Source: Xylographa opegraphella (taxonomy: Eukaryota). Taken from it: 64,000 nt of DNA. Both the position numbers and the translations under genes were made by a program. Of the stretch, positions 1 through 25,865 are shown in pieces. Where the stretch lies: contig JALDZX010000001.1 of assembly GCA_022813865.1 (NCBI GenBank), positions 682,001 through 746,000 of the forward strand. Reading direction: 5' to 3'. The first letter of the stretch is position 1. Every line of letters starts with the position of its first letter. The notes beneath the pieces are model-generated. The model worked only from the letters and a program-made list of their open reading frames with translations, did not search any database and was not told the origin of the DNA.

Positions 1-6
1 CGCCTC

Positions 7-1014
7 GTGAATGACAGCCACGCGCCTAAAGTAGAGCAGACACCAGAGGCGATTGTCAGAGGCGATGTCCCCAGTTCAAATCATCCAACCTATCCTTATC
101 CCATACCGCACTTCCCATTGCACCTTACCAACGCCTTGGTCGAAGTTCCCGCTGCTGACGGCAAGGAGATCAACGACAAGCCAGACCTTGACCTGCTTTA
201 TTTCCAGCCATTTATACCAAAGAACGTTGAGCGAGATTTGTTTGACTTTCTAAGGCAAGAATTGTTTTTCTATAGAGTCCAGTACACGATCAAAAGAGGC
301 CCCACGGAGACGCAAATCAACACGCCTCGATAGTAAGTCACCGCGAAGTCAGCTGGACCGTGATTTTAACCTCTCGCCAGCACCACAGTGTTTGGAGTAG
401 ATGAGACATCCGTCTTCGGTCCTGATGGTTCCCTTCTCGACGCCCAGTCCTTGAAGCCGGTGGCCAAGGATCGCTACCGCACATGCAAGCCACGCCCTAT
501 CCCGCACTGTTTAGATGAGCTCCGCAAGATCACGGAAGTCTTCACGTCCTGCACGTTCAATTTCTGTCTCGTCAACTACTACGCCTCTGGGGCGGATAGC
601 ATATCCTACCACAGTGACGACGAGCGCTTTCTGGGACACAATCCCGCCATTGCATCCTTCTCTTTAGGCGCGAAGCGTGATTTCTTGATGAAGCACAAGC
701 CCTTGCCGCCGGGCATTCAAGATCCAGCGCCGAGTGCAACGCTGTTGAAACTACCGCTGGCAAGCGGTGACATGGTTCTTATGCGAGGACCCACGCAGTC
801 GAACTGGCTGCACAGTATACCTAAGCGGAAAGGCGGAGAGAGCGAAAGAGGTCGGATCAACATTACGTTTAGGAAAGCCCTGGTTCGAGGAGGGACTGAG
901 AACTACTACCAGTACAACGTTGGGAGCGGTGACATTTGGCGATGGGACGCAAAGCTTAGGGAGATGAGACCATGGACGAAGCCCACAATACAAACAGAGC
1001 CATCCGCTCGATAG
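7..1014 (+). CDS. AlkB-family 2OG-Fe(II) dioxygenase (ALKBH2/3-like), probably 5'-truncated by the window edge
   Basis: Intron 333-380 (GTAAGT...CAG) joins two ORFs as ...NTPR-Y-TTVFG. Motifs present: NFCLVNYY, SYHSDDE (HxD), IASFSLG, WLHSIPK, RINITFR. No in-frame ATG in the first exon. Confidence 0.88.
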
Positions 1015-1540
1015 GTGCGCAAAAGCGAGTGTGCGTTTTTGCGGAGGAGTCCCTGGAGCATCTCGGTCAACAGTCACTCACTCTGCTTACTTCGGGCTTA
1101 TTCTTCTCTGTCTGCCGCGCAAAAACAGTGAATGCTGTTCTGGCCCGATTCTTCCTGCATTATCCACCATTACTTCTGTGACATACTGGATACTACCTGA
1201 TTCACTTCATCGGATCACGTAGTGCTTATTTCACTTCCATTAATCACGTCATGCCGAACCAGCTTTCTGTCTACGGATTTCGTGGCAATACTTCGGGATG
1301 TTAATATATTGTTATTTGATAGCGCCGCTACCGTTCTGGCATAAACGTTCACTTTTGTGTAATAATACGACAGAGAAGATAAGATCAAGGTGAGAATTAC
1401 AGTGCATACTGCCGCAGAGTTCGAGACCAACGTTTGATTCGTGTCAACAAGGATTCTCACGATTACGCTAAGATATCTTCTGTATTATCACCGTCCATCA
1501 CACTCTCAACATGTGCATATTGCTTACAAACGGAAACATC

Positions 1541-3713
1541 TCAACGGTCTTCGGTGCTTTGCTCTTGCACAGCGTCATAGAAAGCGTCAACCGCAAACAG
1601 TTCCATAATCTGGGGATCTCCTGACTGTAATGCCAGGTCCGTCATTGTATGACCTTGGCTGTTCTTGAGGTCAGTACTCGCGCCAGCTCGCAGCAATTCC
1701 CGGAGCACGTCATAGGAGTGAGTGATTATGGAATGGGCCGTTGCGGAATCCCCGCCCACGTTCACGAGATCTAGTGCGGCGCCTTCCGATATCAAATGCG
1801 CGGTCGATCTCCAGTGGTTTCTCCTCGCAGCGTACATTAGTGGAGTGTCGCCGTCATCGTCGATCGTGTTTATCTCATGCGTTGTGGCCATGATAGCATC
1901 GAGAAGCTGAACGTTGTCCTGGTTCTTGCAAGCAATGTGTAAAGCCGTGCCGCCAAAAGCGTCTCGCAGATCCGTCCTGGCACCATGAGACAACATGAGC
2001 TCAACAGACGGTATGTCTCCGTTTTTGATGGCGTGGTAAAGCGGTGGGCGCCGCTCAGAATCAGCCAAATTCGGATCTGCCCCATGGTCAAGTAGTGTCT
2101 GTGTGGTCAAATAATCTCGGCGAGCGACTGCCCATGAGAGAGGAGTTCTCTTGTTTGCGTCCACGGCATTCAAAGCTGAAGTGGTGCTCTCTAGCTCGGA
2201 GATCACTGTTCGACTTATTATGTTTAGCGTGGCCTTGTGCAAAGTTGTAAATTGACGAGATTCCATATAGTCGTCGTCCGCAAACATCTCGCTCACCTCC
2301 CTGATCTGCGCTGGTACCAATTCTTTCGACAATACGAGATTCCAAGCACTATCAGAGGGTGTGCTAATCAATCAATCATGGGTCCGACGTGGTAATGGAC
2401 CGACTCACACTTTATTTTCATCCGCCAGCGTTGGCAGAGCACCCTGCTCGATTAAGAACTTACATACTTCGAAATGACGGTATGCTATCGCATACTATGG
2501 ATGGTCAGCTCGGCGCCTAGGTATTATGATTGAACTCACATGCAAAGCCGATTGTCCGTAGGCGTTGACGTCAAAGGGAGAGGCTTCGCGATCGAAAAAC
2601 AATTTCTGAATAACATCCAGCCGTCCGGTGCGGGCCATACGCCATATTGGCGAAGACCAAGCAACCATTCGAGGCATCCGGAGAGTACCCTCAATTCCTA
2701 CAGCAGAGGACATACTCATCGAGATGGCCAGTGCTCGTGCCAGAAACCAGCTAGGGAAATGATAATCGAGTCGGATAGTGGGAGAAGCCCGATTCCGACA
2801 ACCTCTCTCGTTGCACGCGGGAGTCAGAACAGGAAGACCGGAATATCCCACAAACAGTGCACCAAAGACATGCCTGACAAGAGCTGGGGTGCGAACGGCG
2901 CGCTTCACGTGGCATACGCAACTGCACCATGCATTGCATGCATTGCAGCTTCTCTTGTTGACCACAGTACAAGTTCGTACCACGATAGTCCGATGATCAG
3001 CATAATCCAGCGCGTCAATTGATGTGGCGGGCTCGCCATGAGCACGTACATCGAGACGTGCGAGGGAACTATCAGGGAATATTCGATGCGGGATTGGCGG
3101 CTGATGGTCATCCAAATCGAATATTGTTCCTTGGGGGACGGCAGATGGTTCACGCGCGAGTATTGAGGCAAGCTGAGCTGACAGTGCCTGCTGGTCACAG
3201 AAAATTCTTTGGACGGTAAGCTCGACGCGTGAAACGGATGAGCTGTTTCTATTCGTGAATGGTCTGCATAGAGGAAAAGGTGCTGCGAACTTACGAGGTG
3301 ACCATGCCCAAGCTGGTTGCCAGATTCCAGCGTATACTCTTCAGCTCGGATTGCAGGCGCAGGACGACGTGTTTCTCCCTTAGCCAGGCAAGTCGAACAG
3401 CTTTGACGCTGCCATCGGCGCCTAGCAGCCGATATGCGATCAGCTCTTGCAGCTCCAAGATCTTGTCTTTTGCCCTTTGCACATGACTGGCCAAGGCCTT
3501 CTTTGGGCCTAGATGTTGATCGTTGTGGTCTTCTTCCTGTGAGATGTGCGCTATGGTCGTCAGTATCGCCTGGAGGTCGGTGATCTCATTGATCAATGCT
3601 GATAGCTCGTCCTTTGACTGTAGCATTGCTCTGATCTTGGCGATGGCCGTGACCGTCTTTCCAACCAGTCCGATGACTGCGATGAGACTGGCAGTGAAAG
3701 CCAAGGGATCCAT
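1541..3713 (-). CDS. HeLo-like N-terminal domain + Cys/His-rich segment + ankyrin-repeat protein (about 676 aa)
   Basis: Exons 3713-3295, 3242-2540, 2494-2409 and 2363-1541 have GT-AG introns and total 2031 nt in frame. N-terminus MDPLAFTASLIAVIGLV resembles Helo_like_N. CNACNAWCSCVCH motif. Ankyrin motifs QSALH, TTLHKA, TPLSWA, PPLYHA, TALHIA, TPLMYA. Confidence 0.82.
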
Positions 3714-4058
3714 GCTGACCAGTGCTGCCCAACAGCAATATTTTGTGCAACAGGACGTGTGAAGGAGCGTTCGATTTCACGAGGCTGAACATCTCGAAGG
3801 TGTCCAGCTTTGCCTGGCGTGAGCGATGACTTCATTGCGCAGGAATCAGGCAAAAGAACGCCCCGTTTGTTAGTCGTCGTTACAGACTGTTGATGAGCGG
3901 TTGGGCTGAAGCGCATGTGGATATGGACCATCAAGTACTCCGTACAAGAAGAATATAGTATATATATATGTGTGTAACCCGGGACAATCGTAGACAACCC
4001 AGCTCCCGTGATTTAACAACTATTTGACTGTACTGCAGTACGCAACTGCGCCGTGGCC
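3714..4058. promoter_or_regulatory. Putative bidirectional promoter with a TA-repeat tract
   Basis: 345 bp between two divergent ATGs, with TATAGTATATATATATGTGTGT at about 3954-3975. Confidence 0.45.
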
Positions 4059-6914
4059 ATGGCGATGCAAGCTTTCAATGGTTTCAGCAACAAATTCCTC
4101 GCAAACATCGACGTTGATGCTGTCGTGGTGGTATTGCTGGTGTTGGCGGAGTGGGTAGTCTCTACCGCGCTTGCGATGATCTGCTTCTGGAATGAATGGA
4201 TGGCCGCTGCGGAGCGTCGGAAGAGATACACAGCCATAGCAGCAGGTTTGACGGTCGGGCTGGGTAGGTGAGTCGACCCTGGTCCTGGTTCTTCCTAATC
4301 ACTTGTGTCCTATTTATTGTAGACATTGAGTAGTCCATCCACAGGCTGCCCTAGCCGATGCTAACGGTGGTTCTCCAGAACGGCATTCGTCGTCATTCTT
4401 ATCTTGACAGTGCAACAACGGCAACGAGAGCAAGGTGATGAAACCACCACACACGCTGCGATTGACGGGGCGTACGCATTGCACATCTTTTCGAGCGCGC
4501 AGTGTTTTTTACTGCTGGCACAGGCATTGCTCTGCGTGCAGAGAAAGGTTCGTTGGCCGAGTCTGGTGAAACCTGGACCGGCCGGCAAACGTTCCGATGC
4601 GAAGCCAGCATGCACATCCAATGACCTTCCACACGATCCTCCCCTTGTGGTGATTATTCCCAGCTACCACGAAGATTCATGGGTTCTTGAACGTACGCTC
4701 AATGCGCTTGTTGCCAACAACTATTCGCGGTCGAAGCTGTGCATCTATTTGTCTTTTGATGGACTCGATCAGATCGAGGAAATCGACAGTGTCAAGAATT
4801 TCCTCGGCCTCAGCCATGTCGTTGAGAATGGTGCAGACGGAGAATCTTGCTATGAGACAGAATTTCAAGGCTACCGCGTCGTTTTCTCTGTCTTTCGTCA
4901 CGGCGGAAAAAGGCAGTGTCAGAAGTCCACTTTCGAGCAGATCAAACGCCGTGAAGAGATTGCCTTCCTCCGCCAATCATGTATACTTCTACTGGATTCC
5001 GACACTTTCCTACAACATGATTGCATTCGCAACTTTCTGCTGACAATGGGAGAACAAGTCCCCTTAGAACCTGGATATCATGCATTGTCCGGCATCACCA
5101 GAGTATTCAGGTTCCACCAGTCGTGGCTTGGCCTTTTCCAAAAGCTCGAATACTTTTACAGTCAGCACTTCGAACGCGAAGCAGAAGCTACGTGTGGTGC
5201 TGTCCATTGCCTTCCCGGAGGTCTCACTATGCTCACCTACATGATGCTGGAAAATTGCGCCGACGAGTATTTCAAGGACGTTGTCCAAGCCCATGATGCG
5301 TGCTTCGACTACATGAAAAGGTCCTTGGGTGAAGACCGCTGGCTTACCCAACTGGCCATCAAGAGACCACGTGCTCGAGGCGGCATTGGACTATCGAGAA
5401 GAGCTTTTTGTGAAACCGTAGCCCCTACGACTATCATGAGCTTTCTCGCACAAAGGCGCCGATGGTTTCTCGGCTGCATAGCAAACGAGGTATCTGGAAT
5501 GTCTGACCCTGACGCGTGGGCATTCTACCCTATACTCTCTCTTTACCGCATCGCACACTATGCTATTGGTACTCCCGGCTTCCCGTTCATTCTAACGAAA
5601 TTCAATCTGCTGCGACAAACACCATACTACCGGATCAACCTCACGCTATGGGTGGCTGCTATCGCGCTGACCTGGACTACTCTGATCGCTATCGCTGGAC
5701 GTGAGGACCTGTACAGTGCAATTTCGTATCCGGTTTTCCTTGTGCTAAATCCATTGCAATTGACAGTCGCCTGGATATATGCTGTTTTGACCATGGGCCA
5801 CCGCACCTGGGGCGCGAGGACTGTACCACAGGTGTCCAAGTTGCCGGCAGGAGTTCCGAATCACGGCGACCGGACGGTGAAACGCTTGCCCATCCTCTCA
5901 GATGCCGTCTCTCTGGTCGCAGAGATGCAAGATTACCTGGGACGCTGCCATTCCAGCTGCGCCTCACGGGTGCTGCGAGTCTTGGGCGTGGGTTCGCAAG
6001 TGGGCGAGATCACTTGTGTGCTGTCGGACGGCATCGTGGTTGCGCGCAAGCGCTCGCCGTCGCCCACCTCCACCGCCGGGCGCGCGATCCTTCAGGAGAT
6101 CAGGATCCTGTCGCGCCTGAGCCATATCCACGTCATCTCCATGCTCAAGGCGCAGGAGTCGGGTCCGAGCACGGAAATCTTGCTGTGGCCGGTGGCGCCT
6201 TGCGATCTGATGGTCTTCCTCCCCAAGATCCACGACGCCGACCGCGGCGGACCCCTCGACCACGAGCTCTGGCAGGCTCTCGGCCTCCTCCGCCCGCATC
6301 GCCAGCGCTCCTCCCTCGACAACGCTCGGCAGTGGCTCCGGAGATCCATAGGCTGCCTCTGCAGCGGCGTCGCTTACATCCACAGCCAAGGCATCCGCCA
6401 CCACGACATCCGCACCCAAAACATCCTCGTCACGCCGCGCGGGCCCGTCCTCGCCGACTTCGGCGGCGCCGTCGTCCTCGCTACGGCGCAGACGCAGACG
6501 CAGAACCCCCCCTCTACCACCCAGCCGTTCGACAGCGCCTTCGCCTCCGACGTCCTCCTCCTCGGCTGCGTCGTCCTCGAACTCGCCTCCGCCATCCTCG
6601 GCATCGACCCGCGCGCCCACGCCGCCTTCGACGTCATGACCGACCTCCGCCAGACGTACGAGTGGAATTTCGTCCACAACGGCGCGCGCCGCGCTCGGTG
6701 GGTGGCCGCCATGCGTCGGTGCTCGCACGACGCGCTGGGTGGTGGTGGTGGTGGTGGGGGCGGGCTGCTCGATCTCGCGCAGGCCATGCTGGCGGACGAT
6801 CAGGCTCGTCGACCGTCGGCCGCGCAAGTTGTGCGAGCGCTTGGCGGCTTGGCTGCCGCGGGCGAGGTGCTGTGTGGCGCGTGTTGCGCTGCGGGGACGG
6901 GAGGGGGGGTGTGA
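4059..6914 (+). CDS. Divergent ChsD-type (class VI/division 3) chitin synthase fused to a C-terminal protein-kinase-like domain (about 914 aa)
   Basis: Exon 4059-4267, intron 4268-4378 (GTGAGT..CTAAC..CAG), exon 4379-6914 with no stop. GT2 motifs: LSFDG, HGGKR, DSDT, CGAVHCLPG, LGEDRWLT, QRRRWFLG, RTWG. Kinase motifs follow: LGVGSQVG, VARK, QEIRIL, HHDIRTQNIL, ADFG, SDV, RPSA. Confidence 0.85.
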
Positions 6915-7330
6915 GTGTTTGGTTGGTGGGGAGGGAGAGAGAGGGAGGAGGAGGAGGCTGTGGCGCGGGGCCAGAGGAGGGTACTTTATCCTCAGTCGCG
7001 CGCACATGCGCCGGATGGGTGAAGGCGGGGCGTTCACAGGGCTAGTATGCCTGCATTGCAAAGCACAGCCCAAGTAAGCACGAGCGCCTCATCCTGCAAT
7101 GCAATGCCGCAGACGCTTGACGGCCCCACCTATCCTTCTGCTTCCGCCGCCCCCCTGCCTTCCTGTCCACAGCTCTCCGCCCTGCCCTACGTAGCACGAA
7201 TATCCCACTAGCCCCCCCTCCCTTCTTTCCAATCCTTCCCCAGACAATCACAGCCCCCCTAATCGCGGCTATCCCATACATACATCCATACCATTCCCGC
7301 CCAACGAAGGAAACCGTCCCCCAATCTGGT

Positions 7331-7363
7331 ATCTAGCATCTAGCATCTAGCATCTAGCATCTA
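7331..7363. repeat. 7-bp tandem repeat (TAGCATC)n
   Basis: atctagcatctagcatctagcatctagcatcta, about 4.5 copies. Confidence 0.9.
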
Positions 7364-7976
7364 CCGCTCGCCCATGCCCGCAAACACGCCCCCGGGGTAG
7401 GGGGCAGAGAACAGAAACCGGCGGTGTGTGGGTCCTATGGTATGATATGGTAAGGCTGTGCAGAGTATCCGAAGCTCGACGATCGAAGCTCGAAGGTTGA
7501 AGAACGGCGATCGCAAGAACGGGGAAATGAGATGAGAGCAGTAATGGCAGAGGTGGATGTGGATGTGGAATGCGAACGCGATGTGGAGGAAGGGAAGGGA
7601 GGGTTTAGCGAGGCAGTGAGTGAGTGAGTTCGTACGTAGATCCCGCACCCTTCCACCCTCCGCCTTTCTCAGAGCAGCAGCAGCAGCATCAGCAATGATC
7701 ATGGTAGTGGTAGTATCTTTCTTTCCATTCTGATGCATACCCCCCCCCACCCCCTCCACCCCTCGCCTTCGGGCCGTGCTGTCGATCACATCGAACATAT
7801 CGAACATATGGATGGATGGATATATGTGTGTATGTATTTCCCCCCCCCCCCGGCACTGCACACCCACCGCATGACAGCCCCAGCGGTGCGTGACAATGTC
7901 CATCAGGGGGCCAGGGAAAACGGGGCAGAAACGGGGCAGAAGAAAAAGGCAGAGATGGAAGTAGAAGTGTAGAAGT

Positions 7977-7999
7977 GTAGTAGTAGTAGTAGTAGTAGT
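7977..7999. repeat. (GTA)n microsatellite in low-complexity intergenic DNA
   Basis: About 7 GTA copies, with C homopolymers nearby at about 7740 and 7840. Confidence 0.85.
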
Positions 8000-8243
8000 G
8001 GGTGAGTAGTAGAAGAAGTAAATATCCCTCCCCCTCCCCCATCCCTGCCCTCCCTCCCCCGTCTCGCTCCCCAAAAAACCATAAAAACAGTAAAAAACCC
8101 AATCATAGACAGCACGATCCCGCTTTCCAGAAGCACGTGTACGTACAATAAACCCTTTCGCTATGCTGTTGCCCCTCCCATCCTCGGTGCCTCCCGATCC
8201 CAGCTGCTTAGCTGATTTTTCGCTTTCCGCTGCCCAGCCAAAA

Positions 8244-8273
8244 NNNNNNNNNNNNNNNNNNNNNNNNNNNNNN
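8244..8273. other. Assembly gap (30 N)
   Basis: Run of N. Confidence 0.99.
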
Positions 8274-8377
8274 AATGGGCAAATCGTGGTACATAAAGAA
8301 ACAAGACGACTTGTCCCACGCTCTCCCCTCCACATTCTCCCCTCCCAAACCCATTTCCGCGGGGGCCCCCGAACGAA

Positions 8378-9502
8378 TCAACCGTCCTCATCCCCCTCTG
8401 CCTCCTCCTCGTCATCCTCCTCGCCCGTCTCCTCCGCGCTCTCACTCCTTCTCTTCTTCGCCACCGGCTCACCCCCACCGCCCATACTCTTCCGCTTCTT
8501 CCCGTTCCCCGCCCCACCCTTCATCTTCCCGTTCTCGCCCTTCTCGCCCATATTTTCCTTATCCTCGCCGCCCATCTCGCCGTCCATGGCGGCGACCTCG
8601 TCGGCGGTGAGGAAGCGGCCGCCCGGCCCGCGCGGACGGCGCATGGCGTGTTTGTGCCTGCTCTCGTGGAGGTATGGTTTCCGCCCTTTGCTCGTGAGTC
8701 GCAGGGCCTCTTCCAGCTTCTGTCGCGCGACGCGCCGTTTGAGGATCCGGTGGAATTGTTTCGCGTTGACGTAGAGCGGAGACTCCTCGACGGCGCCAGG
8801 GGCGGGGATGGGATCGGGTGAGGGAGGGTGTTGCTGTTGGGGCGGTGGCGGCGGCGGTTGGGCGTGCTGGTGCTGCGGCATTTGCGAGGGCGGGGCCATG
8901 GATTGCGGGGGCACCGATGCTCGATGCGGCTGCTGCTGGTGGTGGTTCATCATGACGGGCTGGGCGCTATTCATGTGAGGACTGCCGACGCCGACGTGTT
9001 GAGACATGCGTCTCTGTGGGGGCATGGGGTGACCCTGTTGGACCTGCGAGGGAAGGGGCGGCATCTGATTCCCCAGCTGCGGCGGGCTCCGCGGCGTTCG
9101 CTCGGGCTTGATCGCGTTGACGTGCGCCATGTGCGGCGACGAGCGCGCGAGACTGTCAGCTATCGACGTCGATGGCATGTGGTAGCCGTAGGCCGGGCCG
9201 GCGGCAGCTGCGGTCGCCATGGCCGCCGCTTGTCCCGGTGTGATCCCATACTGTTGTGGCATATTGGGCGGCACACCATAGGCCTGGCTGTAGATCTGTT
9301 GATGTGGTTGCGGCGGTGGTGGTTGCGGTTGATATTGCGAGCCCTGGGATGGCAGGATGGGCGATGCCTGGTGGTTCGGATGTTGTTGATGGATATGCGA
9401 GGCATGATGGTTGGGAGGAGATGTCATAGGTGGGCCGGCGGACGTCTGTTGTGGTTGGTAGTGTGGGTGAGACCCGTGAGGATATTGCGCGTAGTCCATC
9501 AT
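8378..9502 (-). CDS. hapB: CCAAT-binding complex subunit HapB/Hap2 (NF-YA)
   Basis: NF-YA core [18 protein letters not shown]...[26 protein letters not shown], Gln/Pro-rich N-terminus, first ATG at 9502. Confidence 0.95.
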
Positions 9503-12500
9503 ATGTAGGTCGGTTGCCCCGGCGGGCCTGGCGGTTGCGGTGATGCGACTTGGAGGCACCGACGGTCGGTCTGGCGTGTATTGCTATCTCGTCGAGGTAG
9601 GTAGCAGGAGCCTACCAGCTTCCAGCGCCGCGAAGTCCGTGACCTTGATGTTTATTGGTGATTGCGCCGTCCAGTGAAAGCGTAGTGCTTTGCGGCGGGG
9701 ATTGTCGAGCATGAGATTGGCTGCCGGGAACGCGCAAATCTGCAGCCCTGTCAATCCACCGGTACGTACTCGATCAAAGATATCTTGGACCGCACCTCCG
9801 ACCGCAGTTGTTCTTGTCAAGGTGTGTCCTTGATCTTCTCACGACGACGATGGTGATGAAGAGGGCGGACGCTTGTGGTTTTGTCGCCTCTGTCGAGGGA
9901 CTAGATACTTCGGGCAAGGCGGAATTGGGCCTCTCTGCAGCGCGGTGGATAGGCGTCACCCGGGTATGCGCTGTCAATTGGGACCGTTGCAACGGCCGGA
10001 AGGAGCCTCAATTGCGGGTTCCTATAACGCCGGAAGTTGTCAGCGGGCGTGGTCCCAACGTCGACGGTTCTGATCGATATTCATACCCAAGTTTAGATTC
10101 CTTGTCTCGTTCCCGCTGAAGGTGAGGCTGTGCGTTTGGTCGAAATGCTCGAAAGCCGGTGGAGGATAGCGTGCGCAGGCCAATGGCGGAGGCAAAAATG
10201 TTCGAGGCTGTCAATTCGTTCTAAGTAGACTGGGAGGCCACCAGTCAGCAGCGGACCAGGTGCTAAATGCGCGGTGAGGCGATAACTGCGAGTCGTGCGC
10301 TGGCACTGCAGGAGTAGTGTGGACAGGGTTGCGCGTACCCTTCTCACGACGACCGGGCAGCGTCCTTCTCGATCGTCTGAACCTCGGTCGAGTGACGTCC
10401 ACAGTGGTGGCAGCTTTGCACACGAGTTGGGGTTGGTCTGTTGATGTACCCTCCGTACGATTGTGGAAAAAAATAAATAATATGGGCGCGTCGGTGGGGG
10501 TATGGGATCTTGCTTTTGTACAAGCGCGGTCGGGTGCGCCGAATGTAAGCTGTGCAGCAAAAGGAATTATGCGACAGCAGCCGTCAGCACGGCGGTGACG
10601 ACGGCGGTGCAGTGTCGAGCGCCAGGCGCTGCTGCTCTGCTTGATCGATATCGAGGCTTCACACTGCGTATGTCAGGTCAGTGATGGGTAATGGCGTCAT
10701 TCATTGCCGTCGCGTCCAACAGCGTGCTCGTGGATCACGATGTGTACCTGGTAGCCGCAACAGAGACAAGTCGTCCAGATTTGGCCGAATGAGAGACTCG
10801 AGCCAGGGCGCAGCTTCGGTTGACTAACCTAATATGCCGGCCACGACACAGGAACGCTCCTCACTGGTTGACGTCGCGATTGAGTCCGTCGTAGGATTTG
10901 GGACGGTGACGGTCACCTGATGATGAGTGGGATGGCCGACAAGCTGCTTGATTGTTGGCTATGGTTTTTTGGGGATTCGCAACGAGGGCCACGGTGGGCT
11001 TTACGGCGATAGGTTCTTTCTCGAGCTGCACTGGAGATCACCCGAAGGTAGCTTTGTAGATTGGGGGGGGAGGGGAAGGGGGGGGGGGTTGTTCGGATCG
11101 TGAAGTGAGGAATCTGATTCGCGAAAGGCGAGTAGGAAGAGTGATTGGAGTGGAGAGCGAGCCAGTGAAGAGAGAAAGAATTCGGGGGGAGTGGGTGGAA
11201 GAGAAGCGTTGCAACTTTTGTGTCAAACAACAGCTACGCTCGGTAGGCTCGTGACTAGCGCCGCACGATTCCGTTGGAACGGCTTGTCGGTGCTGGGATC
11301 AACGTGCAGCTTGGAGCGGGAGAATGGGGAGGACGTTGTTCGACCAATGGAGAGGAGGGAGAGGGTGACAGGCACAAAAGGCAGCCACTTTGAGTCATGA
11401 TCATTACAGTTGAGCTACGAAGTACGGCTGGTTCTTTGCTTTTTCCGTGGCGCCAGGGGGCGGGAAGGAGAGGTGGGGTGGAAGAAAGGTGGCGATGTCA
11501 ACAAGGGCGGTGAGGAGCAGGCGGCAGTGGATGAAGTTCCAACAAGTGTCCAGAGTGGTCAAGCCAGAAGTCGGGACACGCCTCGCACCGATGTCCGTAC
11601 AGTACTCCGTACATGTGTGACACAAGAGAGCGAGCGCCTACCACGATCTCCTTCGTGATGAATGATGATATTAATCTTAAATCTTGTTGATGAAGGATGT
11701 GATGAGATTGAGAATCGAAAAGCGAGCCGCGCACACACACACTCACACCCACACTCGCATTCACGGAACTGTTCGATGCCGATCCGACGGCCCGTCCGAA
11801 GGAAGAACTCGAAACACGTGATGATGATTAATCCTCGCAAAATGGGCGATGGCGCGCGCATTTCTGTGATTCGCGCCCTCGATCGGATTATTTAAAATTG
11901 GTCGATTTGATTTGAATTACTTACTAATACGGGAGTAAGGTAATATTGTTTCGTGGCCTTTCTTCCCCCCCGGCCCCCAGTGACCCCCACCGCTTCTTCC
12001 CCCCCCGAAACCATTGCCGCCCGCCCCAATGATAAAGCCGCGAGCCGGAAACACCCCTACTCCACCACTTCCGAATCCGACTTTCCCCCCCCCCTCCCGG
12101 TCCACCGGCTCTTTCACCGCCCCCCAGCTTCCGCAGCGTGGGCCCTGCTGGCTTTTCGGCTCTGGAGGGGGCAGGAGGGAAACGGGCGCTGATCGCTTCA
12201 ACCAAGCGGACGGGCATCGATGCGGTCATGCAGAACTCGCCAACCTTGCGACAGCGCTTCCGGCTGCGGGTCATCCGTTAGCGGCTGCCAACTCGAGACC
12301 TGCCATGTCGGAGGTGGGTGTGTGTGGTGTGGGTGGTAGGGAGTGGGTGTGGATGCTGCCTCGACACCCAAAGAGCAGGAACGAGAATGGTCAAACACGA
12401 CGCGCCCCCACGTCGTCTGCAGAATATACGCGACAGGAGCGAAAGTAAGAGGGAGGGGGAGGGGTCTGGAGACTGTAGACAGACGTCGGGGAGAGAGGAT

Positions 12501-13188
12501 GGGGGCAACGGGACGAAAAAAAAGCACACTCGGATTTCAGCAACTGGGGTTTTCGTTCGGAGGGATTCACGTCCAAGTCGACGGTGCCTCAATCGCGACG
12601 ATACATGGCCCTTGTTTTTCCCCGTCCGTCCCCCACCTCTTGCCTGAGGTGAGCACACCCTTCTCCAATGTATTCAATTATTGGCGGCTTTATGCATGGG
12701 CGAGCATGGGGCCTCCAAGGCTGCCGCCTTCTGCGGAACATGCACCTTCCCTCGCCCCCCTCCCTCCCTCTCTGCCTGCAACATGGAAAAGAACGTTGCA
12801 CATCAGACCCCACGGGGTACATGGGTTCGGCATGAACATGAACATGACACTGCAGAGGACACCGGCAACGGGGCAATCCTGCAAAACCCCCAATGGATTA
12901 TTTGCGCTGCATGACTCGCGCGAACCACCCCCGAGACGGAGCTGGAACTGGGGTCTTCAACTATCATCAGCCGCATTTGGGGGGGGGGGAGGGGGGGGAG
13001 GGAGGAGGAGGAGGGGGGAAGAGCATCACATCCTCATCCGGCGCAGGGCTGTCAGCAAAAGCAATCTTGTTCAATTTCTCAATAATTTCGTTTCATTGTG
13101 CATTTCGTACATGATCAGCCGTGAATGTATCGCCGCCCCCCCCCCCCCCTCTCACCCGACTTTTTCCCCCAATCTCCCCCCACACCTA

Positions 13189-15037
13189 CTACTCGTCCTC
13201 TTCCACGCCCTCCGGGATGACCTCGCCCTCCTCCTCGCCCTCCTCGAACGTGTCCGCCGGCACCTGGTAGAGCCGGAGCAGCGGCTTGTTCGGGTCCTTC
13301 ACCAGCACGTACTTGCCCTCCGCCATCTTCAGGCACATGTCCACTATCGTCCGCACGATGCCCCAGCCGTTGGCGAGGTTGAGGTTCATCTGTTCCGCAA
13401 ACTTCCGCGGGTCGTACCCGACCACGCCGAGGATGACGTGCCGCTCGTTCGACTTCGGCGTCGCCCGGGACACGAATCTGAAAGGCCGCCGCCGTTAGCA
13501 AGCGGGCCGCAACCTCCGTCGCAACCGGAGGAGCCTTACCCGAGTTTCATCACGTCCGCTTTGGCGAGGATGCTTTGGACCGTCCACCGCGCCAGCTTGC
13601 AACTGTTATTCTTCATCTCCGTAGCCACCACCGCGCCGCGTTGACTCGTCAGCTTCGTCCTCCAGTCGAGTGCGCCTCCGCTGCCTTGCGCCTTGTGGTC
13701 GAACTCGTTGAGCGCTTTCAGCGTGAGGAACTGGTCTTCGCCACTGATGTTGTTCTTCACCACCGCATCCAGCTCGGTGCGTACAATCAGGTGCAGTGGG
13801 TCCTCATCCTTTTCAAGCGAGAGATCGAAGCGTCGGTATTTGTAAGCTTTCGAGGCTAGGGGTTCTGTCTCTTCGCTCGGATTGTAGAATGGGTTCTCGT
13901 GACTCATCTCGTACTTTGAAGTCTCCGATTCTATCACCGTCTGGTTGGCGAAGTTGTGATTGATGAATGTTGCTTCCAGAGCCAGTGCGGTGGGGAAGTT
14001 GATCGTCTCCTTGTTACCTTCTGACGCTTCCAAAGGTGAATCGGCCGCATTTTCATTCACGCTGACCATGTCGAGCGAAGAACTGTCTCGTTTGTCCAAG
14101 TATATCTTATTGCCATGGCGGGTAATAACAATGTCCCATGAATAAACAGACCTCGGAGCACACATGAGCATGGAGAGAATGTTGTCCGTCGCGAATATTG
14201 TAGCCTCATCCTTCTCAGCGAGCTCTTGGATGATTGGGTCGGAGGAGGTAGTGACATTGTAGGCAATTCGGTCAACGACGTTAAGTTTCCTCTCGGTATT
14301 CTTAACTGGCGGTTTGTCGTATGAGCGGTCGTAGTAGTATAGGAAGCCATAGGTATCGATGTCTTCTCCTGCACTTGTCTCGAGATTCAGTTTTGCCAAG
14401 CGGTTGAAGTCAATTTCCTCTAGCATCTGCCAGTCTGGCTTGATATTCACGGACGAGTCCCGGTTGCGCTGCGGCTTGTCGTAGTCCTTCCACCCAAACC
14501 TCCGACCTCGTCCCCCTCCTCGGCCCCCTCGGTTATCGTAATATCCGTTCTGCTGACCGCCACGACCACCCACACGTTGGAACGTGCCTCTTCCACCGCG
14601 TTGATCACGACCACCTCTTCCACGGCCACGGAATATGGTGCCTCCACCACGACCAAAGCCCCGGGTCTTGGTCGACGTTCTGGTATTGTCAACTACCGAG
14701 AAGGACGACTCGTCTTCTGCAACCTGGACGGCGAAAAGACTGGACGTTCCGGCACCGTATACCTGTTGATCTAAAAGCGGCTGGTAAGTCTTACGGGTTG
14801 AATGTATCAACGGGCATCGTTACCTCTGTAGTTTCGATTATACTGTTGTCGACCCCCTCGCCCATCTCGGCCATCTTTTCCTTCAGAGGTCCAATCTGCC
14901 ATTCGCCCCAACTTGTCTCCCTTCGAGTACGCAGCATATGGAACGCCATCGACAAGGGTATCCGTTGTCGTAGTAGGACCCCACGACTCGTCTGAGGGGA
15001 GAGCAGATACTACATCTGCCAATGATATTGGTGCCAT
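13189..15037 (-). CDS. eIF3d: Translation initiation factor eIF3 subunit D
   Basis: [59 protein letters not shown]. Introns at about 14772-14824 and 13479-13539. Confidence 0.95.
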
Positions 15038-18404: not shown

Positions 18405-20125
18405 TCGAGACATAATCACGATGTAGACGTGCTATTGGATATCAATCGTCCTTGCCATATTAGTTCTTGTATGAAGGAATGTCATAATAATCGTCTCCAT
18501 CGTGCTCGCTCGTGCTGTCTCAGCGTGTACAATACAACACGGTAACACTCGTGACGCCCTGCAGGGTCCATCCCCGCTAAGGTACCTAGGCCGTTGATGG
18601 TCAGCTTTTCTGCATCTTTTCACACTGTGGCTTGCTCAGCAGACGGACAGAGAGTGAGTGATGCGGCGCAAGCGAACCAATCGATGCTGCGCCTAGGCCT
18701 AGGTACCTACTCCGTATGTACCTCATCTATCTTGAGATATGGTACCTACCTTACTACCTACCTCATCTTGCAGTAACCCATCTCACCCACTCTTCCATCA
18801 CGCTTCGAAGAATGCCTTTGCAGGTGGGGGACACAGAGTGTTTGCCATCCGTGCAAACGAGTGGGCCGAGCTCGCCTTCACTCCAGATCAGCAGCGATTG
18901 TCCTTTCCTTTCTGACCCCACAGTTTCGGATGCAGCTGGTGATGCAGTAGTGCCGGCTCCGACACGGCACTGTTGCTCCCAAAGTCGATAGATCCACCGA
19001 TGGCCCAATGGGAAGCCGCACTGCAGGGCCGACAGCAGTAGCGCCGCTGCCAAGCCAGTCGCTGCGAGGCCCGCCAGCAGTTTTGCAGCGTTTGCGCTTG
19101 ACCGATCCGTCAGCAGTAAGGTAGGGTCAGAGGGAAAGAAGTGGGTGGTGCTGCCAGCTGGTCGACGCTTATGAGATCGACCTCTTTGAGACGGCGGGGG
19201 GATCGTCAGTGGTCATCTGGGAACTGATGGGAAACATACGAAGGTATGCATTCCGCCCGTTCCAAATTCGAGGGGAGTCGGCCATGGAGATCGTGGTGAG
19301 ATGGCATGCACGGAACAACTCCATGGAGTCGCTACGCACGGGGCCTGAGAGTTTTTATTTTTTTCGTTTTTTCAACCATCCTTCTGGAGCATCAAGATAG
19401 TGACGGTGTGGTGATGTGTACTTCTGGGGTATGTGCCTGGAAGCCTGGTCGGGCTTTCGATCAACTCGGAGCGATGAGATCGTTTGTCACGCGTAAATGT
19501 AGTTGGTCGTGGATGAGCGGATAATGAGTCTTTGACCGACTCATTATTGGACTGCCATTGCGGTCCGGCCTTGGTCACCTGATCCGCCACCGAAGCGTTT
19601 TGGAGGAAATCAAATAATGGCCAAGAGTGTTGTCACTTATTATTGATAAGAAAGTCGTAGGCCTCCTTTGATACAACGGGGTGCTGTGCGTCTTGTTGGT
19701 AGCTCCGCCCGCGCGGTCTGGAGGCGCATGCTGGTCTCGACAATACTTACCTTTTTCTTACCCCTCCTAACAAATATCCTTCCGACTTTCTCTGTCCCCT
19801 TCCTCACCACCAACCCACTCTCAAAGACTCTATACACTCCCTTCGTTCGCGGTCCTGTATCAGCCAACACATTGATCATTATGACTTGCTAGTGCTGTGG
19901 AGCTGAGAGCTCTCACTGGCTTTCGCAGATATCTTCGGACCACGCACGCAAGAAGAGGACAGTCACAACAACGGCCCAGTCAACACCGTTGTGAGGGCCA
20001 CCATTCGCCAGATTATGTATCCACCACGCTTTCTCTAAGCGGGACGTCTCGACCACCTCAACTATACTGTGGATGGTGATTGCAGCCCTTCCTCGTCCGC
20101 GGGTCGTGCCTCTCGCCGCCTCAAG

Positions 20126-23100
20126 ATGGTCGACCAGGACGAACCTGCTGGCCAGTTTCTTGCTCCGCCGATTCTAGCTGCCATTCGCTCCGATGAGATC
20201 AAGGCACGCGTGCAGATGGAGAGGACGGTGAGCCAGGACATCCGCGAGGAGCGTGCAGATCTCAAAGAGGCGGCGGAGCAGTCCTTGAACGTCATACTCG
20301 ACCTCAGTCTTGATGGAATAGTTCGTTGGGTCAGTCCTTCGTGGCAGGATGTTGTGGGTACGACGACCGATTCAATCCGGGGCAAGCCAATTGCAGCCCT
20401 CATAGTCGACGGCAACGAAATTAGCCCATTCTATGAAGCGGTTGAGTCAATGAAGAAAGATGACTCGAGAAGCCATATCGTTCGTTTCAGGGTTCGGCTT
20501 GGACCACTTTCGGTGCTTGCCCAGAATTCTGTTGATCTTGCTGTTCAAGGAGAGGCCGAGGGCTTTCGTCAAGATGAATCGGAAGAGCTGCAGGAGGAAA
20601 GAACTATAAATCTAGAGGGTCAGGGTATCATGGTATACGATCGATCATCGGGTGGCGAGAGCCATGTAAGTCTACGTGTCCTGCTCGGCAAACCCCTCAC
20701 GCGTTGCTGACCAGTAAAAGACCATGTGGATGATTCGACCCTCCAGTGGTCCTAGAGAAATTACCATTGATCTTCCGGAACTCCTTGTCGAGTCCCTCGG
20801 TTTCGGAGCGGAAGTGCTTGCCGCCTATTTAACAGCACTTGCGGATGTCTCTACAGATGGTCCCGCCAATCATCCTCCGCCTCTTCCAATTCTGTGCCGC
20901 ATATGTGAACGCCAGATTCCTCCCTGGTGGTTCGAGAGGCACTCTGATTTATGTTTACAAGAACACAGAGCTGAAATGGAAGTACAGCTGGCTCACGAGG
21001 CCTTGACCGATCATCGGAACGCTATCGTCAAGGTCTTAGATGCCTTGGAGGCACGGAAAGGACGGCCAACGAGCAACGATCTATCGCCCTCTCCACAATT
21101 GCCTGCAGAATACAAGGGCCTCCCTATTGGCCCGACGTCAAGCCCCTCCCCCAGCGCTTCTGGAAGGGCCTCTCCGGCAACGCCACCCCACTCCAGGGAA
21201 CATTCCAAAACAGGGCTCGGTCACGCTCGTGCCAAGTCTTTTGCCGTAAGGCGACCGCTCTCACGGATTGTTGAGCTGATACTTGATCTCTGTGATACAG
21301 CCATAGAGATCAAGACCCCAATTCTCAGTGAGACGAACCAGAATGCGCTTGGCGAGTTCAGGACGCAGTCACCAGGATCCGAATCTCGCATCTCACAGGT
21401 CCTGGGCTGGCAGACACCAAGCACTAATACTCTAGAGAATGAGCAAGGTCTTGCCGCCTTGAGCGCGGACACAGAGTCACTTGCCAGAGCCAAAGTAGAT
21501 GCTACACTTAGGCATCGCCGAATTATTGAGTACTCGGAGCGCATTCGTATCGAATTCCACGTGCTTGTCCAGACTTGCATTGACGCTGCTTTGCAAAAGG
21601 CAGCTAGCATTCGGGAAGATGGCTTGAGCAGCTCCTCGGAAGGCGAAGATGATGCTGAAACACCGGCGCCGCAAACCACTACGTTCTTTTCTGAATCCTA
21701 CGATGGTTCCTCGGCAATGGCCTCGGCGCTGCGGAATGCCTCTGACCCGTCACTTGCATCGCAGGTAGACAGAAGGCAGTCGATTGCCATTTCCACAGGA
21801 TCAAATAGTCCTCTAGAATGTCCAACGCCACGGTCACATCACTTTGCGGTTGGGGTACTGGGCGGGAGTCGTTCCACCAAAAAGCGTAATTCTATATATG
21901 GAGGCGGCAGCGACGCAGGAGACAGCGATGGCAGCCTTGCTTCATCTATATTCTCTGGAGGTCTGAGGACAGAGTCGCCGGGATCGTCAGAACACGCTCT
22001 GGGCCGTTCAATGAGCTCTCGGGAACGAAAGCGCAGGAGCCTGAAGCTGCCTGGCGTTCCGTCGCCACGACGAGGCCAATCACCCGCCAGAATCATTCCA
22101 CCATCTTCGCCACTCAGACTCTCGAAACCGCGAATTACCAGTGGCACCGAAGCTATTCCCACCCCAATCCATTCGCCCCTGCTGACAAACAATGATCTGA
22201 TTTCGCCAACTGCTTCAACACACGGACACCGCAGGCAATCATCAGTAACTTCATCTGCAGATCTGACCAGGGCTCCTGTCTCACCGAGGCTATCGGCAAT
22301 GAGTCAACCCCAGCAACGAGCTGTACCTCCTTCTATAAAAGATTTTGAGATTATAAAACCTATTAGCAAAGGAGCCTTTGGGAGTGTCTACCTGTCGAAG
22401 AAGAAATCGACCGGTGACTACTTTGCAATCAAGGTACTTAAGAAATCTGATATGGTTGCCAAGAACCAAGTCACAAACGTCAAAGCTGAAAGAGCTATTA
22501 TGATGTGGCAAGGCGAGAGTGACTTTGTTGCGAAGCTATACTGGACCTTTTCAAGTAAGGACTATTTGTATCTCGTCATGGAGTATCTCAATGGTGGTGA
22601 CTGCGCATCATTGGTAAAGGTCCTGGGTGGCTTGCCAGAAGATTGGGCCAAGAAGTACCTTGCGGAAGTTGTGCTTGGGGTGCAGCATCTCCATAGCCGC
22701 GGTATTGTGCATCGAGATCTGAAGCCTGATAATCTTCTCATCGACCAAAAAGGGCATTTGAAACTGACAGACTTTGGCCTGTCACGAATGGGCTTGATCG
22801 GGCGCCAAAAACGACTTTTGAGGAGCCCGCACGACTCTGTTCCAGACTTGCTAAAGCATGGCCCTTTCGCACGGCCGCCGTCGATGACTTCTTCGCGATC
22901 TGCGTCTTTCGATTTCCAAGGCACCCATTCACCATCCTGCACGCCTGTCATGACCCCGGACTTGGCAGGCCAACTTGGTCAACCATCCTATTTCAGTCTG
23001 AATCGAGACACGATCCTTAGCCGGGATCAATCCCGACGAGCCTCTGGTTACCGCAGTGACAGCGGTAGTAGCGACACATTCAACAACATGTTCAAAGCGT

Positions 23101-25865
23101 TCTCCTTGAACGATGAACAGCCACAAAGAGGGGCACCTATAGAAGAAGAAACAAATCTGGAAGATAGAGAATCTCCAGATCCATACTTCTTGCAACCCAG
23201 TCTCAGTCATTCTAGCGTCGGCCAACATAATACTCCACCCCAGTCTGGCATGTTACCTCCACCGATGGCTTTGTTCGATCCCGAAGATCATAATCGACGA
23301 TTTGTTGGAACGCCTGATTATCTTGCACCTGAAACTATCAATGGTCATGGCCAAGATGAGATGAGTGATTGGTGGTCCCTGGGATGTATTCTCTTCGAGT
23401 TCTTGTTCGGTTATCCACCCTTTCACGCAGACACACCTGAAAAGGTTTTTGAAAACATACTCGCAAGAAGAATTGATTGGCCCGCTGAGGAGGAATGCTT
23501 AGTGTCGGACGAAGCCAAGCATCTAATGTCGAGACTGATGACGATCAACCCAAAGGAACGGCTAGGATCCAACCTCGGTGAAGAATTCGCCAACGGCGGC
23601 GATGAGATCCGCAGGCATCCCTGGTTTGATAGCATCAATTGGGAAACTTTGCTGGAAGACGAGGCTCAATTCGTTCCCGCCCCTGAGAACCCAGAAGACA
23701 CAGAGTACTTCGATACGCGAGGTGCGACGTTGCAGGCTTTTGCGGAAGAACTCGAGGATCAAGCCACTTCTCCTGCCCCAACACCCGGAGCAGATTATCC
23801 CGAAAGGCCACATGACGCTTTGTCTCGAATCAGGACTCAGGTGAATTCGATGAAGCGTGGCTTGATGCCTTTACACATTCCAGCTCATGTTCGTGATCTG
23901 AGAAGCAGGAGACTCAGCGAACCAGTGGCTACTGATGACTTTGGTAGCTTCACGTTCAAGAATCTTCCTGTACTTGAAAAGGCCAATAAGGATGTCATCC
24001 AGAAGCTGCGTGCTGAAGCTCTACATAGCCAATCTAAATCAACCGTAGGGCAGATCAATTCTGGCAATAATTCCCCAGCACCGTCGCTTGAAGGTAGTCC
24101 ATTGCTACCGTCTCCATTGAAACGGACACTTTCTGTGCAAAAAGGCGTCAATCGACCAGCGTCGCCGTCAAATCTCAGTCTCACAAATTCGTCGCCAAGC
24201 AGGGCCTCACAACCAACATCGCCTCTTCTAGTCTCGTTCTCTACGGGTCCCCATCATGAACGAAGGAAAACATCAAGTACTTCTTCAACCTTATCACACC
24301 AATCCAGTGCTTCTTTGCAGCCTGGAAGCTTCTTTGATCTTCAAAGACTTCCAATAGGTTTCTTGGCAAACTCAACCGCTTCTTCGCCGATTAAATCTGC
24401 CAGAACGCCCAATGTTATGCAGATTGCATCGCCGGAAAAGGGGCTGACACCGCAAAGAGTGCCCAGTCTTCCTACATCGCGCGCAAGATCGCAGACTGTT
24501 GGATCGCAGGAAGGTGATGTTCCTACGGTCAAACCATTTACTCATCACAAACGAAGAAGTCAGGTATTCGACGTCTCTCCGTCATCGTCGGATAACGAAG
24601 ATCCTCGTGCCAAGGCACTCCTGCGAGTGCAACGTCGCAGGCAAAGCTCCCGAAGAATGTCACAGCTACCTGGTGCGGATGGGCCCTGTTTCCGTCCGCT
24701 TGATGTGTTGATATGTGAAGATCATCCTGTCTCGCGGCTGGTCATGGAAAGGCTGTTGGAGAAGCTGCGTTGTCGGACCATCACCGTTGTCAATGGCCCT
24801 GAAGCTGTCAGATTTGCCACAAGCGAGGTACAGTTTGATATCATCATGATGGAGGTGAAGCTACCCCAATTGAACGGGGCGGATGTCGCTCGGATGATCA
24901 GAGGCACCAAGAACAGTAATCAGCAGACACCAATCATTGCAGTGACGGGCTATCTTAAAGAATTACCGCAAAACCACCACTTCAATTCACTGATCGAAAA
25001 GCCACCAACTTTAGAAAAACTTACGGAAGCGTTATCCAGTTTATGCCAGTGGAAACCTCCTCCGCCTGATTTTCAACCGGAAATGATGCATCATACACCA
25101 TCCAGTTTGCGCCAAGAGTCCTACCCCTCCGAAGACAGTCCCAATTCTCAGTCCTCCGGACCCTTCGCTCGAATGCCTGGCGTCTCATATCGTGCCTCAA
25201 GTCGCGAAGACTCGATTGGTTCCAGTAGTTTTTATGGTGATGTGGAGTTAACTCAATCTGATGGAGGGCCGGTAATCATCAGCCAGCAAGGGGACGAATG
25301 GTCTGGCAACGGCCTGGGAATCACAGACGAATCACATGATCCAAAGCAATTCATTCATCCCGGTCTGCCGCATCTACTGCATTACAACTCAGCGCCTCCT
25401 GCCCTGGAGTTGTCCTCTCCACGACGACAGCGCTCGTCAGAAGCCATCATGGCTAAGCGAGAAAGCCTCGAGAAGAAAAGACACGAGTGCGCGGAGTCCG
25501 GGGACGATGAAGACGAGGAACTGGGGGATACCTCCATACAACCGAAAAGTCCCAGAAGCAAATACCGCGGATCGAAATTGGGGACCGAGATGCTGAGGAC
25601 GAATAGTCGCGGAAGCGTTATTTCCGCTTCAGAAGAGAATACAAGTCAAGATGCTCGATCTTTACCGCCTCCTTACCTCGCAGATAACACGTCGAGCCAC
25701 GCGCACCATGCCTCCATTACCCCACCGTTGATATTTCCGAAAGAAGTTGGGGAGACGGTCAAAGTCATCGACATGGATGCTACGCCTCGGCCGTCGGGCA
25801 CTACTGGGTCGAGAATGGACGGCAAATCGCCGGAAGCGCCTCTCTCCCCGACACTTCACAAATAG
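20126..25865 (+). CDS. RIM15: Rim15-type Ser/Thr kinase (PAS, zinc finger, split AGC kinase domain, receiver domain)
   Basis: PAS-like WVSPSWQDVVG, CRICE...HSDLCLQEH, ISKGAFGSV, HRDLKPDN, DFG..long insert..GTPDYLAPE, receiver LICEDHP. Intron 20666-20720. Confidence 0.95.

Follow-up and report, generated by a model that had tools for sequence, protein, structure and literature searches.

Neurospora cwr-1/cwr-2 is a linked two-gene allorecognition system, one component of which is chitin-related. For fungal chitin synthases, the accessory domains named in the available sections of a 2025 review are the myosin motor, a cytochrome b5-like domain and DEK-C, and class VI enzymes, confined to the Pezizomycotina, are described there as a CS2 domain flanked by transmembrane (TM) regions (PMC12653383); 'kinase' appears in these sections solely for signalling pathways and in a reference on the phosphorylation of Chs2 by Dbf2. 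Here we describe a stretch of 64,000 nt from Xylographa opegraphella (GenBank assembly GCA_022813865.1, contig JALDZX010000001.1, positions 682,001 to 746,000; the whole stretch is termed the window) that encodes, head to head, an ankyrin-repeat protein (gene A) and a chitin-synthase-like protein fused to a kinase-like domain (gene B). The two genes are also neighbours in Xylographa bjoerkii, and both are restricted to the same few assemblies; they are tentatively interpreted as a signalling pair linked to the cell wall.

Gene models and layout of the pair

The features of the pair are as follows (positions of the window).

1541..3713, minus strand: gene A, whole transcription unit (sequence and splice-site search; X. 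bjoerkii protein P0258 81% identical over 677 aa)
3713-3295, 3248 (or 3242)-2540, 2494-2409 and 2363-1541, minus strand: coding exons of gene A (splice-site search)
3295..3713, minus strand: exon 1 of gene A, N-terminal domain of helices, the first of them hydrophobic (residues 6-24), with a sub-threshold match to PigL_N/Helo_like_N
2672..2983, minus strand: middle domain of gene A, beta-rich and Cys/His-rich, residues ~87-190 of exon 2 (CxxxCxCxCH ... CxExxC)
1541..2671, minus strand: ankyrin-repeat region of gene A (Ank_2; end of exon 2, exons 3 and 4) with the conserved acidic C-terminal motif FYDAVQEQ
3714..4058, no strand: divergent intergenic region of 345 bp, presumed to be a shared promoter; TA-rich around 3958-3975
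4059..6914, plus strand: gene B, chitin-synthase-like glycosyltransferase family 2 (GT2) enzyme fused to a kinase-like domain (Pfam; X. bjoerkii protein P0257 71% identical over 911 aa)
4638..5681, plus strand: GT2/chitin-synthase catalytic region of gene B with DSD, QKLEY, GEDR and QRRRW (Pfam, motifs and hydropathy; TWGAR lies further on)
5973..6836, plus strand: kinase-like domain of gene B with VARK, alphaC Glu, HHDIRTQN and DFG, no APE/P+1 (Pkinase 55.8 bits)

Gene A lies on the minus strand, with its start codon at 3713 and its stop codon at 1541-1543; it comprises four exons, separated by introns of 45-52 nt that are all of the GT..AG type, and encodes a product of 676-678 aa. Gene B starts with the ATG at 4059 on the plus strand and comprises exon 1 (4059-4267) and exon 2 (4379-6914), separated by an intron of 111 nt (4268-4378; GTGAGT...CTAAC...AG); the product has 914 aa. 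The GT2 and kinase parts of gene B are encoded in a single open frame of 849 codons within one uninterrupted exon; the fusion is thus independent of splice prediction and no artefact of annotation. The start codons of the two genes are divergent and separated by 345 bp (3714-4058), and the layout suggests that this region may serve as a shared promoter.

The pair is flanked on the left by a 2OG-FeII_Oxy_2 gene (373-1011, plus strand) and on the right by HapB (CBFB_NFYA; 8381-9583, minus strand), followed by genes for eIF3 subunit zeta and for a Rim15-like kinase (all by Pfam); the flanking genes are core or housekeeping genes. An earlier note on this DNA had placed a divergent pair, with ATGs at 3713 and 4059, between conserved AlkB-like and hapB genes and had named the right-hand gene a CHS-kinase; the sequence confirms the start codons and their distance, the two flanking Pfam families agree with the placement, and Chitin_synth_2 and Pkinase are both matched above cut-off in one frame.

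Our models of genes B and A are matched by those of NCBI for the respective X. bjoerkii orthologues (P0257, 917 aa; P0258, 662 aa), except at intron 1 of P0258, where a later acceptor is used and ~14-16 residues (SSVSRVELTVQR; equivalent to 3207-3248 of the window) are thereby omitted. At the protein level, this segment is conserved in P0121, P0122 and P0259, and the shorter intron 1 of our gene A model is therefore probably right.

Linkage in other genomes

Linkage in other genomes is given here as adjacency or a shared contig; orientation and flanking genes refer to the window. In X. bjoerkii, gene B (MMC18_009131, 917 aa) and gene A (MMC18_009132, 662 aa) carry consecutive locus tags on one contig of 26,883 nt, and the two genes are linked in this species. 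The X. bjoerkii proteins are found in the clusters of P0002 (gene B) and P0138 (gene A).

A search with exon 4 of gene A (ankyrin region) returned P0138 (84% identity; ENA, contig of 19,420 nt), P0139 (69%; Logan, 7,240 nt) and P0140 (59%; Logan, 2,306 nt), after which identity drops to 33%. The search with exon 2 returned P0121 (67%; Logan, contig of 7,240 nt) and P0122 (59%; contig of 2,306 nt), followed by matches of at most 46%. The gene B relatives P0002 (ENA, contig of 19,420 nt) and P0003 (Logan, 7,240 nt) have the same sources and contig sizes as the gene A relatives, and a cluster look-up placed each of these proteins on one contig of the respective size. The pair is linked on the ENA contig, as seen from four open reading frames (ORFs); P0002 and the X. 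bjoerkii gene B protein share 91% identity, and this contig hence represents a different but close taxon. In the more distant Logan relative (gene B 55%, gene A 67-69%), the identical contig size and source indicate that the genes are very probably linked too.

Similarity beyond the linked records falls to 33% for gene A and to 38% for gene B, and both orthogroups are restricted to the same few assemblies. The earlier note had proposed to test for retained adjacency and a patchy distribution of the homologues, and both were found. Together, the co-restriction, the head-to-head layout and the retained adjacency argue that the pair is inherited as a unit and probably also functions as one.

Rarity and phylogeny of the fusion

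The homologue search for gene B was word-indexed and covered 5.77 billion proteins (the three homologue searches of this study each covered proteins of 0.55-1.75 times the query length); the best 120 of 155 matches passing E<=0.001 were considered. Kinase families were detected in five of these 120, i.e. P0001 (the window protein), P0002 (72% identity), P0003 (55%), P0004 (51%) and P0005 (51%). The remaining 115 contain the chitin synthase alone, go by the names chitin synthase D, VI or class VII, and match 46-61% of the query at 31-38% identity. The kinase domain was also searched, by filter-free HMMER, against 1.84 billion representatives of any protein size; at E<=1e-30, the window protein and a fragment of 316 aa (P0261, 69%) were the only matches, followed by fungal kinases at 30-40% identity, and no close stand-alone kinase was found among these representatives.

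A tree of the chitin-synthase domain was calculated from the five fusion sequences and 30 named class VI sequences selected from the 115, confined to class VI and rooted on Lipomyces. The fusion family forms one clade (SH-like approximate likelihood ratio test, SH-aLRT, 100) on a very long stem (~10 substitutions/site), and its internal branches are long compared with those of canonical class VI enzymes; its position beside one Arthoniomycete sequence represents a long-branch placement. The clade lies apart from the short-branched Lecanoromycete class VI enzymes, which argues that gene B is an extra, diverged paralogue rather than the class VI orthologue. Full-text literature searches yielded no description of a chitin synthase-kinase fusion. 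The fusion is very rare and seems to be restricted to a few fungi of the Lecanoromycete (lichen-forming) type.

The chitin synthase-kinase protein

The N-terminal half of gene B matches Chitin_synth_2 (PF03142; 74.4 bits, cut-off 27; profile positions 201-382 of 527) and two general GT2 families in all, including Glyco_trans_2_3 (52.5 bits). The motifs DSD (residue 276), QKLEY (324), GEDR (387), QRRRW (428) and TWGAR (546) align one-for-one with those of the solved Chs1 and are invariant in six family members. On the basis of these intact catalytic motifs, gene B is predicted to encode a highly diverged, Division-3-like processive GT2 enzyme that may be competent to make chitin. Hydropathy analysis predicts three hydrophobic segments N-terminal of the GT2 region and two between QRRRW and TWGAR; because the latter number is even, a kinase domain following a cytosolic GT2 region would stay cytosolic, and the hydropathy profile is consistent with such a location.

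The C-terminal half matches Pkinase (PF00069) above the cut-off of 31.7 bits at profile positions 4-259 of 263. The residues K557 (beta3 Lys, VARK), E573 (alphaC), D676 (HxD), N681 and D693-F694-G695 are invariant in six fusion sequences, across which the fusion architecture is kept end to end; this invariance argues that nucleotide binding, at least, is retained. The domain may represent either an atypical kinase or a nucleotide-binding pseudokinase, and its catalytic competence is a prediction from sequence. In the C-terminal LxGxCC tail (6860-6880; LFGxCC in the other five members), the Cys-Cys is invariant across the six fusion proteins, and GxCC is also found in the consensus of the related kinase family of fungi (alignments A2 and A3); the tail may be a putative lipidation or membrane-anchoring site. 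A (GGT)n tract at 6738-6757 encodes a run of eight Gly in the kinase C-lobe that is found in none of the other five members (alignment columns 857-863). The G+C content rises from ~50% in the chitin-synthase half to 68-70% in the kinase half, and is 63-67% in the HapB region (6001-7000, 8501-9500).

Among the 70 nearest relatives of the kinase domain, four carry ankyrin repeats in the same polypeptide, and one has a HeLo match just below threshold (22.8 versus 23.2 bits) together with DUF7580. This constitutes a weak hint, of the fusion type, that the kinase family may work with ankyrin and HeLo-type modules.

The ankyrin-repeat protein

Gene A is a member of a large family of the Ascomycota. 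Its first 140 residues are helical, with five helices in an AF2 model of low confidence, and a sequence search of PDB with this part gave chance-level matches only (E>=0.5). The match to PigL_N (PF17111, formerly Helo_like_N) stays below the cut-off of 27.2 bits in P0260 (24.0 bits) and in the orthologue P0258 (18.3 bits) as well. Alignable paralogues exceed it (P0127, 31.8 bits; P0129, 30.3 bits), and a distant membership of gene A is therefore likely, though not established for gene A itself.

A linker of low confidence and a middle domain of ~100 residues follow in the model. Seven residues of this domain (C102, C106, C108, C110, H111, C143 and C148; exon-2 numbering) do not vary among 18 sequences and hardly vary among 84; AlphaFold, with the 84-row alignment, predicted a beta-rich domain at a predicted local distance difference test (pLDDT) score of ~66-75. 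The domain matched no Pfam family and, by Foldseek, no structure in PDB at E<=0.001, and the best Z of a wide VIA-align comparison was 3.7; this absence of a match does not make the fold a new one. In the ESM Atlas, the region falls among unnamed ascomycete 'ankyrin family' clusters.

In the full-length model of P0258 (mean pLDDT 61), the ankyrin residues 460-650 (above 85) are the sole confident part. The acidic C-terminal motif FY[DE]AV[QE]EQ (1541-1600) is common to the window, X. bjoerkii, P0139 and P0140 and may serve as a short docking motif. The DNA that encodes the ankyrin repeats was found to contain no tandem repeats, hence the ankyrin repeats are not homogenised. No NACHT, NB-ARC or HET domain was detected by Pfam in gene A or its orthologue; neither a Walker A motif nor an amyloid-type motif was seen in the sequence.

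Compared with X. bjoerkii, the three parts of gene A are 84%, 80% and 84% identical, i.e. evenly conserved along the length; gene B shows 79% identity in the GT2 part and 66% in the kinase part. Gene A thus looks like a gene under ordinary constraint rather than one with recognition-type hypervariability, with the proviso that between-species identity is silent on alleles within species.

The ORFs of gene A paralogues P0121-P0136 all continue past '...GQSALH' into non-homologous sequence; this site corresponds to window position 2540, the end of exon 2, and suggests a family-wide intron position within the first ankyrin repeat. The surroundings of gene A paralogues were surveyed at 80 metagenome loci (26-55% identical; 49 of them at least 8 kb), using tblastn and a hidden Markov model. 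As a separate observation, a paralogue subgroup on three related contigs (L040, L042 and L051) has, ~2.7 kb downstream on the same strand, an ORF of 515 codons with a kinase-like segment (E ~4e-13; at L040, 10001-10414 with 13159-14703).

Neighbouring frames and sequencing reads

An open frame of 338 codons without a Pfam family (7364-8377, minus strand) follows the HapB frame immediately downstream on this strand; it represents either the C-terminus of HapB or an independent gene located between gene B and HapB. The large Rim15-like gene (20042-25862, plus strand), with a weak PAS_9 match followed by Pkinase (204 bits) and a response-regulator receiver domain, is unrelated to the pair. No notable direct or inverted repeats were found flanking the pair as signs of a mobile element.

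Reads of three runs (X1, X2 and X3) were mapped to the window at 80% likeness. Run X1, which may be the source of this DNA, covers all of positions 1-12000; X2 and X3 gave short pieces on conserved parts of 1-12000, too fragmentary for statements on linkage or absence. The X2 pieces (another organism of the same study) lie at 2403-2657 and 4042-4199 with 2-3.4x depth and 81-84% likeness, with a few changed letters near 5000; as they match parts of both genes, a relative with genes A and B may be present there.

Interpretation of the pair

We tentatively favour the interpretation that genes A and B are a lineage-restricted, co-inherited, cell-wall-linked signalling pair of divergent genes whose products would cooperate at the plasma membrane. 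Gene B would be a chitin-synthase-like enzyme of the plasma membrane with an atypical kinase domain as its cytosolic C-terminus, and this domain would report or control the state of the synthase. Gene A would be cytosolic, with a HeLo-like helical N-terminus, the Cys/His-rich beta domain and an ankyrin platform; its ankyrin region or C-terminal motif might dock on the gene B kinase or be phosphorylated by it, and gene A would thereby act as a membrane adaptor or regulator that sets the location or activity of the synthase. Such a role is more likely for gene A than that of a killer. Contact between the two proteins, and the biological output, are postulated; a complex prediction for X. bjoerkii (gene A residues 141-662 with gene B residues 570-917; score 0.00, mark 0.34, alignments unused) gives evidence neither way.

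Several observations weigh against this interpretation. The PigL_N match of gene A reaches only 22.4 bits (E 8.8e-5), below cut-off, and spans profile positions 1-88 of 209, i.e. under half of the profile; of the HeLo-like/ankyrin protein predicted in the earlier note, the ankyrin part is well supported (Ank_2, 158.6 bits) and the HeLo-like part stays partial. The catalytic loop of gene B reads HHD[IL]RT[QE]N, with Arg for Lys and Thr for Pro, and APE/P+1 is missing, the segment being ~11 residues shorter than the consensus GTxxYxAPE. In the related kinase family (consensus HKDLKPxNILL ... DFG ... GTxxYxAPE ... GxCC; alignments A2 and A3) these are near-invariant positions, hence the gene B kinase may be a pseudokinase. 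A kinase-like ORF was found within 10 kb of a gene A paralogue at five of the 80 surveyed loci, which is about chance level by a rough reckoning, with no computed control, and the fusion profile was matched at none of the 80. The linked genomes are, furthermore, fairly close relatives (gene A 59-84%, gene B 51-73%), and their adjacency may be plain inherited synteny.

This last point leads to the possibility, itself somewhat doubtful, that the genes are neighbours by descent only, as young, fast-evolving, lineage-specific genes that occupy one variable slot between core genes without functional coupling. The closeness of the linked genomes fits this explanation, as do the housekeeping genes on both sides of the slot, the lack of a preference for kinase or chitin-synthase neighbours in other members of the gene A family, and the long stem and internal branches of the gene B chitin-synthase domain. 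It accounts less well for the confinement of both orthogroups to the same few assemblies and the steep drop in similarity beyond these, for a head-to-head arrangement only 345 bp apart, or for the kinase family members that unite kinase and ankyrin repeats in one polypeptide. If, instead, gene B were a self-contained enzyme, in which a pseudokinase merely dimerises or auto-regulates the synthase and to which gene A is unrelated, the altered catalytic loop and the lost APE/P+1 would be explained, and published chitin synthases do carry cytosolic accessory domains for trafficking, e.g. the myosin motor (PMC12653383, available sections). We regard this as unlikely, given that beta3 Lys, alphaC Glu, the HxD Asp, Asn and DFG are invariant in six sequences and that the co-restricted distribution with gene A would be left unexplained.

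The earlier note had proposed a non-self-recognition or defence module, i.e. an allorecognition or heterokaryon-incompatibility pair in which gene A guards, or is activated by, gene B, so that non-self contact triggers death or wall deposition. The conserved linkage, the very narrow distribution, the hydrophobic N-terminal helix of gene A and the one kinase relative that joins a kinase with HeLo-type domains would suit this proposal, and PF17111 is a HeLo-like effector family of fungal NOD-like receptor (NLR) systems, whose profile is aligned with the executioner domain of MLKL in the available part of PMC9815663. Direct support for it was not obtained: NACHT, NB-ARC and HET domains are missing by Pfam, no amyloid-type motif was seen, the C-terminus of gene A is a conserved acidic motif instead, and the HeLo-like match is sub-threshold and partial. 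Variable NLR repeat arrays are expected to be homogenised, unlike the ankyrin repeats of gene A, and gene A is evenly conserved (81% identity overall), more so than gene B. Only GT2/chitin-synthase, kinase, PigL_N and ankyrin families were found by Pfam in the pair, thus no homology to cwr-1/cwr-2 was seen, and the parallel drawn in the earlier note is an analogy only. Overall, we consider allorecognition improbable. In a related long shot, the pair would be an MLKL/RIPK-like switch for death or alarm, split over two proteins and coupled directly to a cell-wall synthase: the synthase moiety would sense perturbation of wall or membrane, or contact with the partner organism of the lichen fungus, the kinase would phosphorylate or release the ankyrin-bound HeLo-like protein, and the N-terminal helix of the latter would insert into the membrane. 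If true, such a switch would link the synthesis of polysaccharides in a new way with regulated cell death or with symbiosis signalling in fungi.

For the favoured signalling pair, a synthase with its own kinase would unite cell-wall synthesis and signalling in one membrane protein, and gene A, as the constant companion of gene B, is a concrete candidate partner. The family is tiny and seems to occur in only a few lichen-forming fungi, which limits its general importance unless it represents a death or symbiosis switch.

Comparison with known systems

The likeness to Neurospora cwr-1/cwr-2 consists in a linked pair with a chitin-related component; no sequence relationship with gene A or gene B was seen. 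The PigL-type ankyrin proteins of Ascomycota share the overall architecture of gene A, and their members P0127 and P0129 pass the PigL_N cut-off; unlike gene A, the surveyed paralogues generally have no kinase or chitin synthase as a neighbour.

The best-scoring relatives of the N-terminal half of gene B are Division 3/class VI enzymes ('chitin synthase D', ChsVI; 31-38% identity), with which it has in common the TM-flanked CS2-type GT2 region and the motifs QxxEY, EDR, QRRRW and (S/T)WGxR. Class VI enzymes carry no accessory domain, whereas gene B has a kinase-like C-terminus of 300 aa and thus falls outside the definition of class VI in the available sections of PMC12653383. Precedent for a synthase joined to an accessory domain that is cytosolic, binds nucleotides and controls delivery and tethering is given by the myosin-motor chitin synthases (same sections of PMC12653383); these belong to Division 2, have an N-terminal myosin head and are broadly distributed, whereas gene B has a C-terminal kinase and occurs in a few lichen fungi.

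The helical N-terminus with a hydrophobic first helix of gene A resembles that of the HELLP/HELLF-type HeLo-like effectors (PF17111) and of MLKL, in which a kinase-type domain controls such a helical domain (Helo_like_N-MLKL alignment in the available part of PMC9815663). Gene A differs from these proteins in having ankyrin repeats in the place of the amyloid motif or pseudokinase, and from NLR effectors in that no NLR gene was seen adjoining it; the kinase is found on the partner protein, where it is fused to a synthase.

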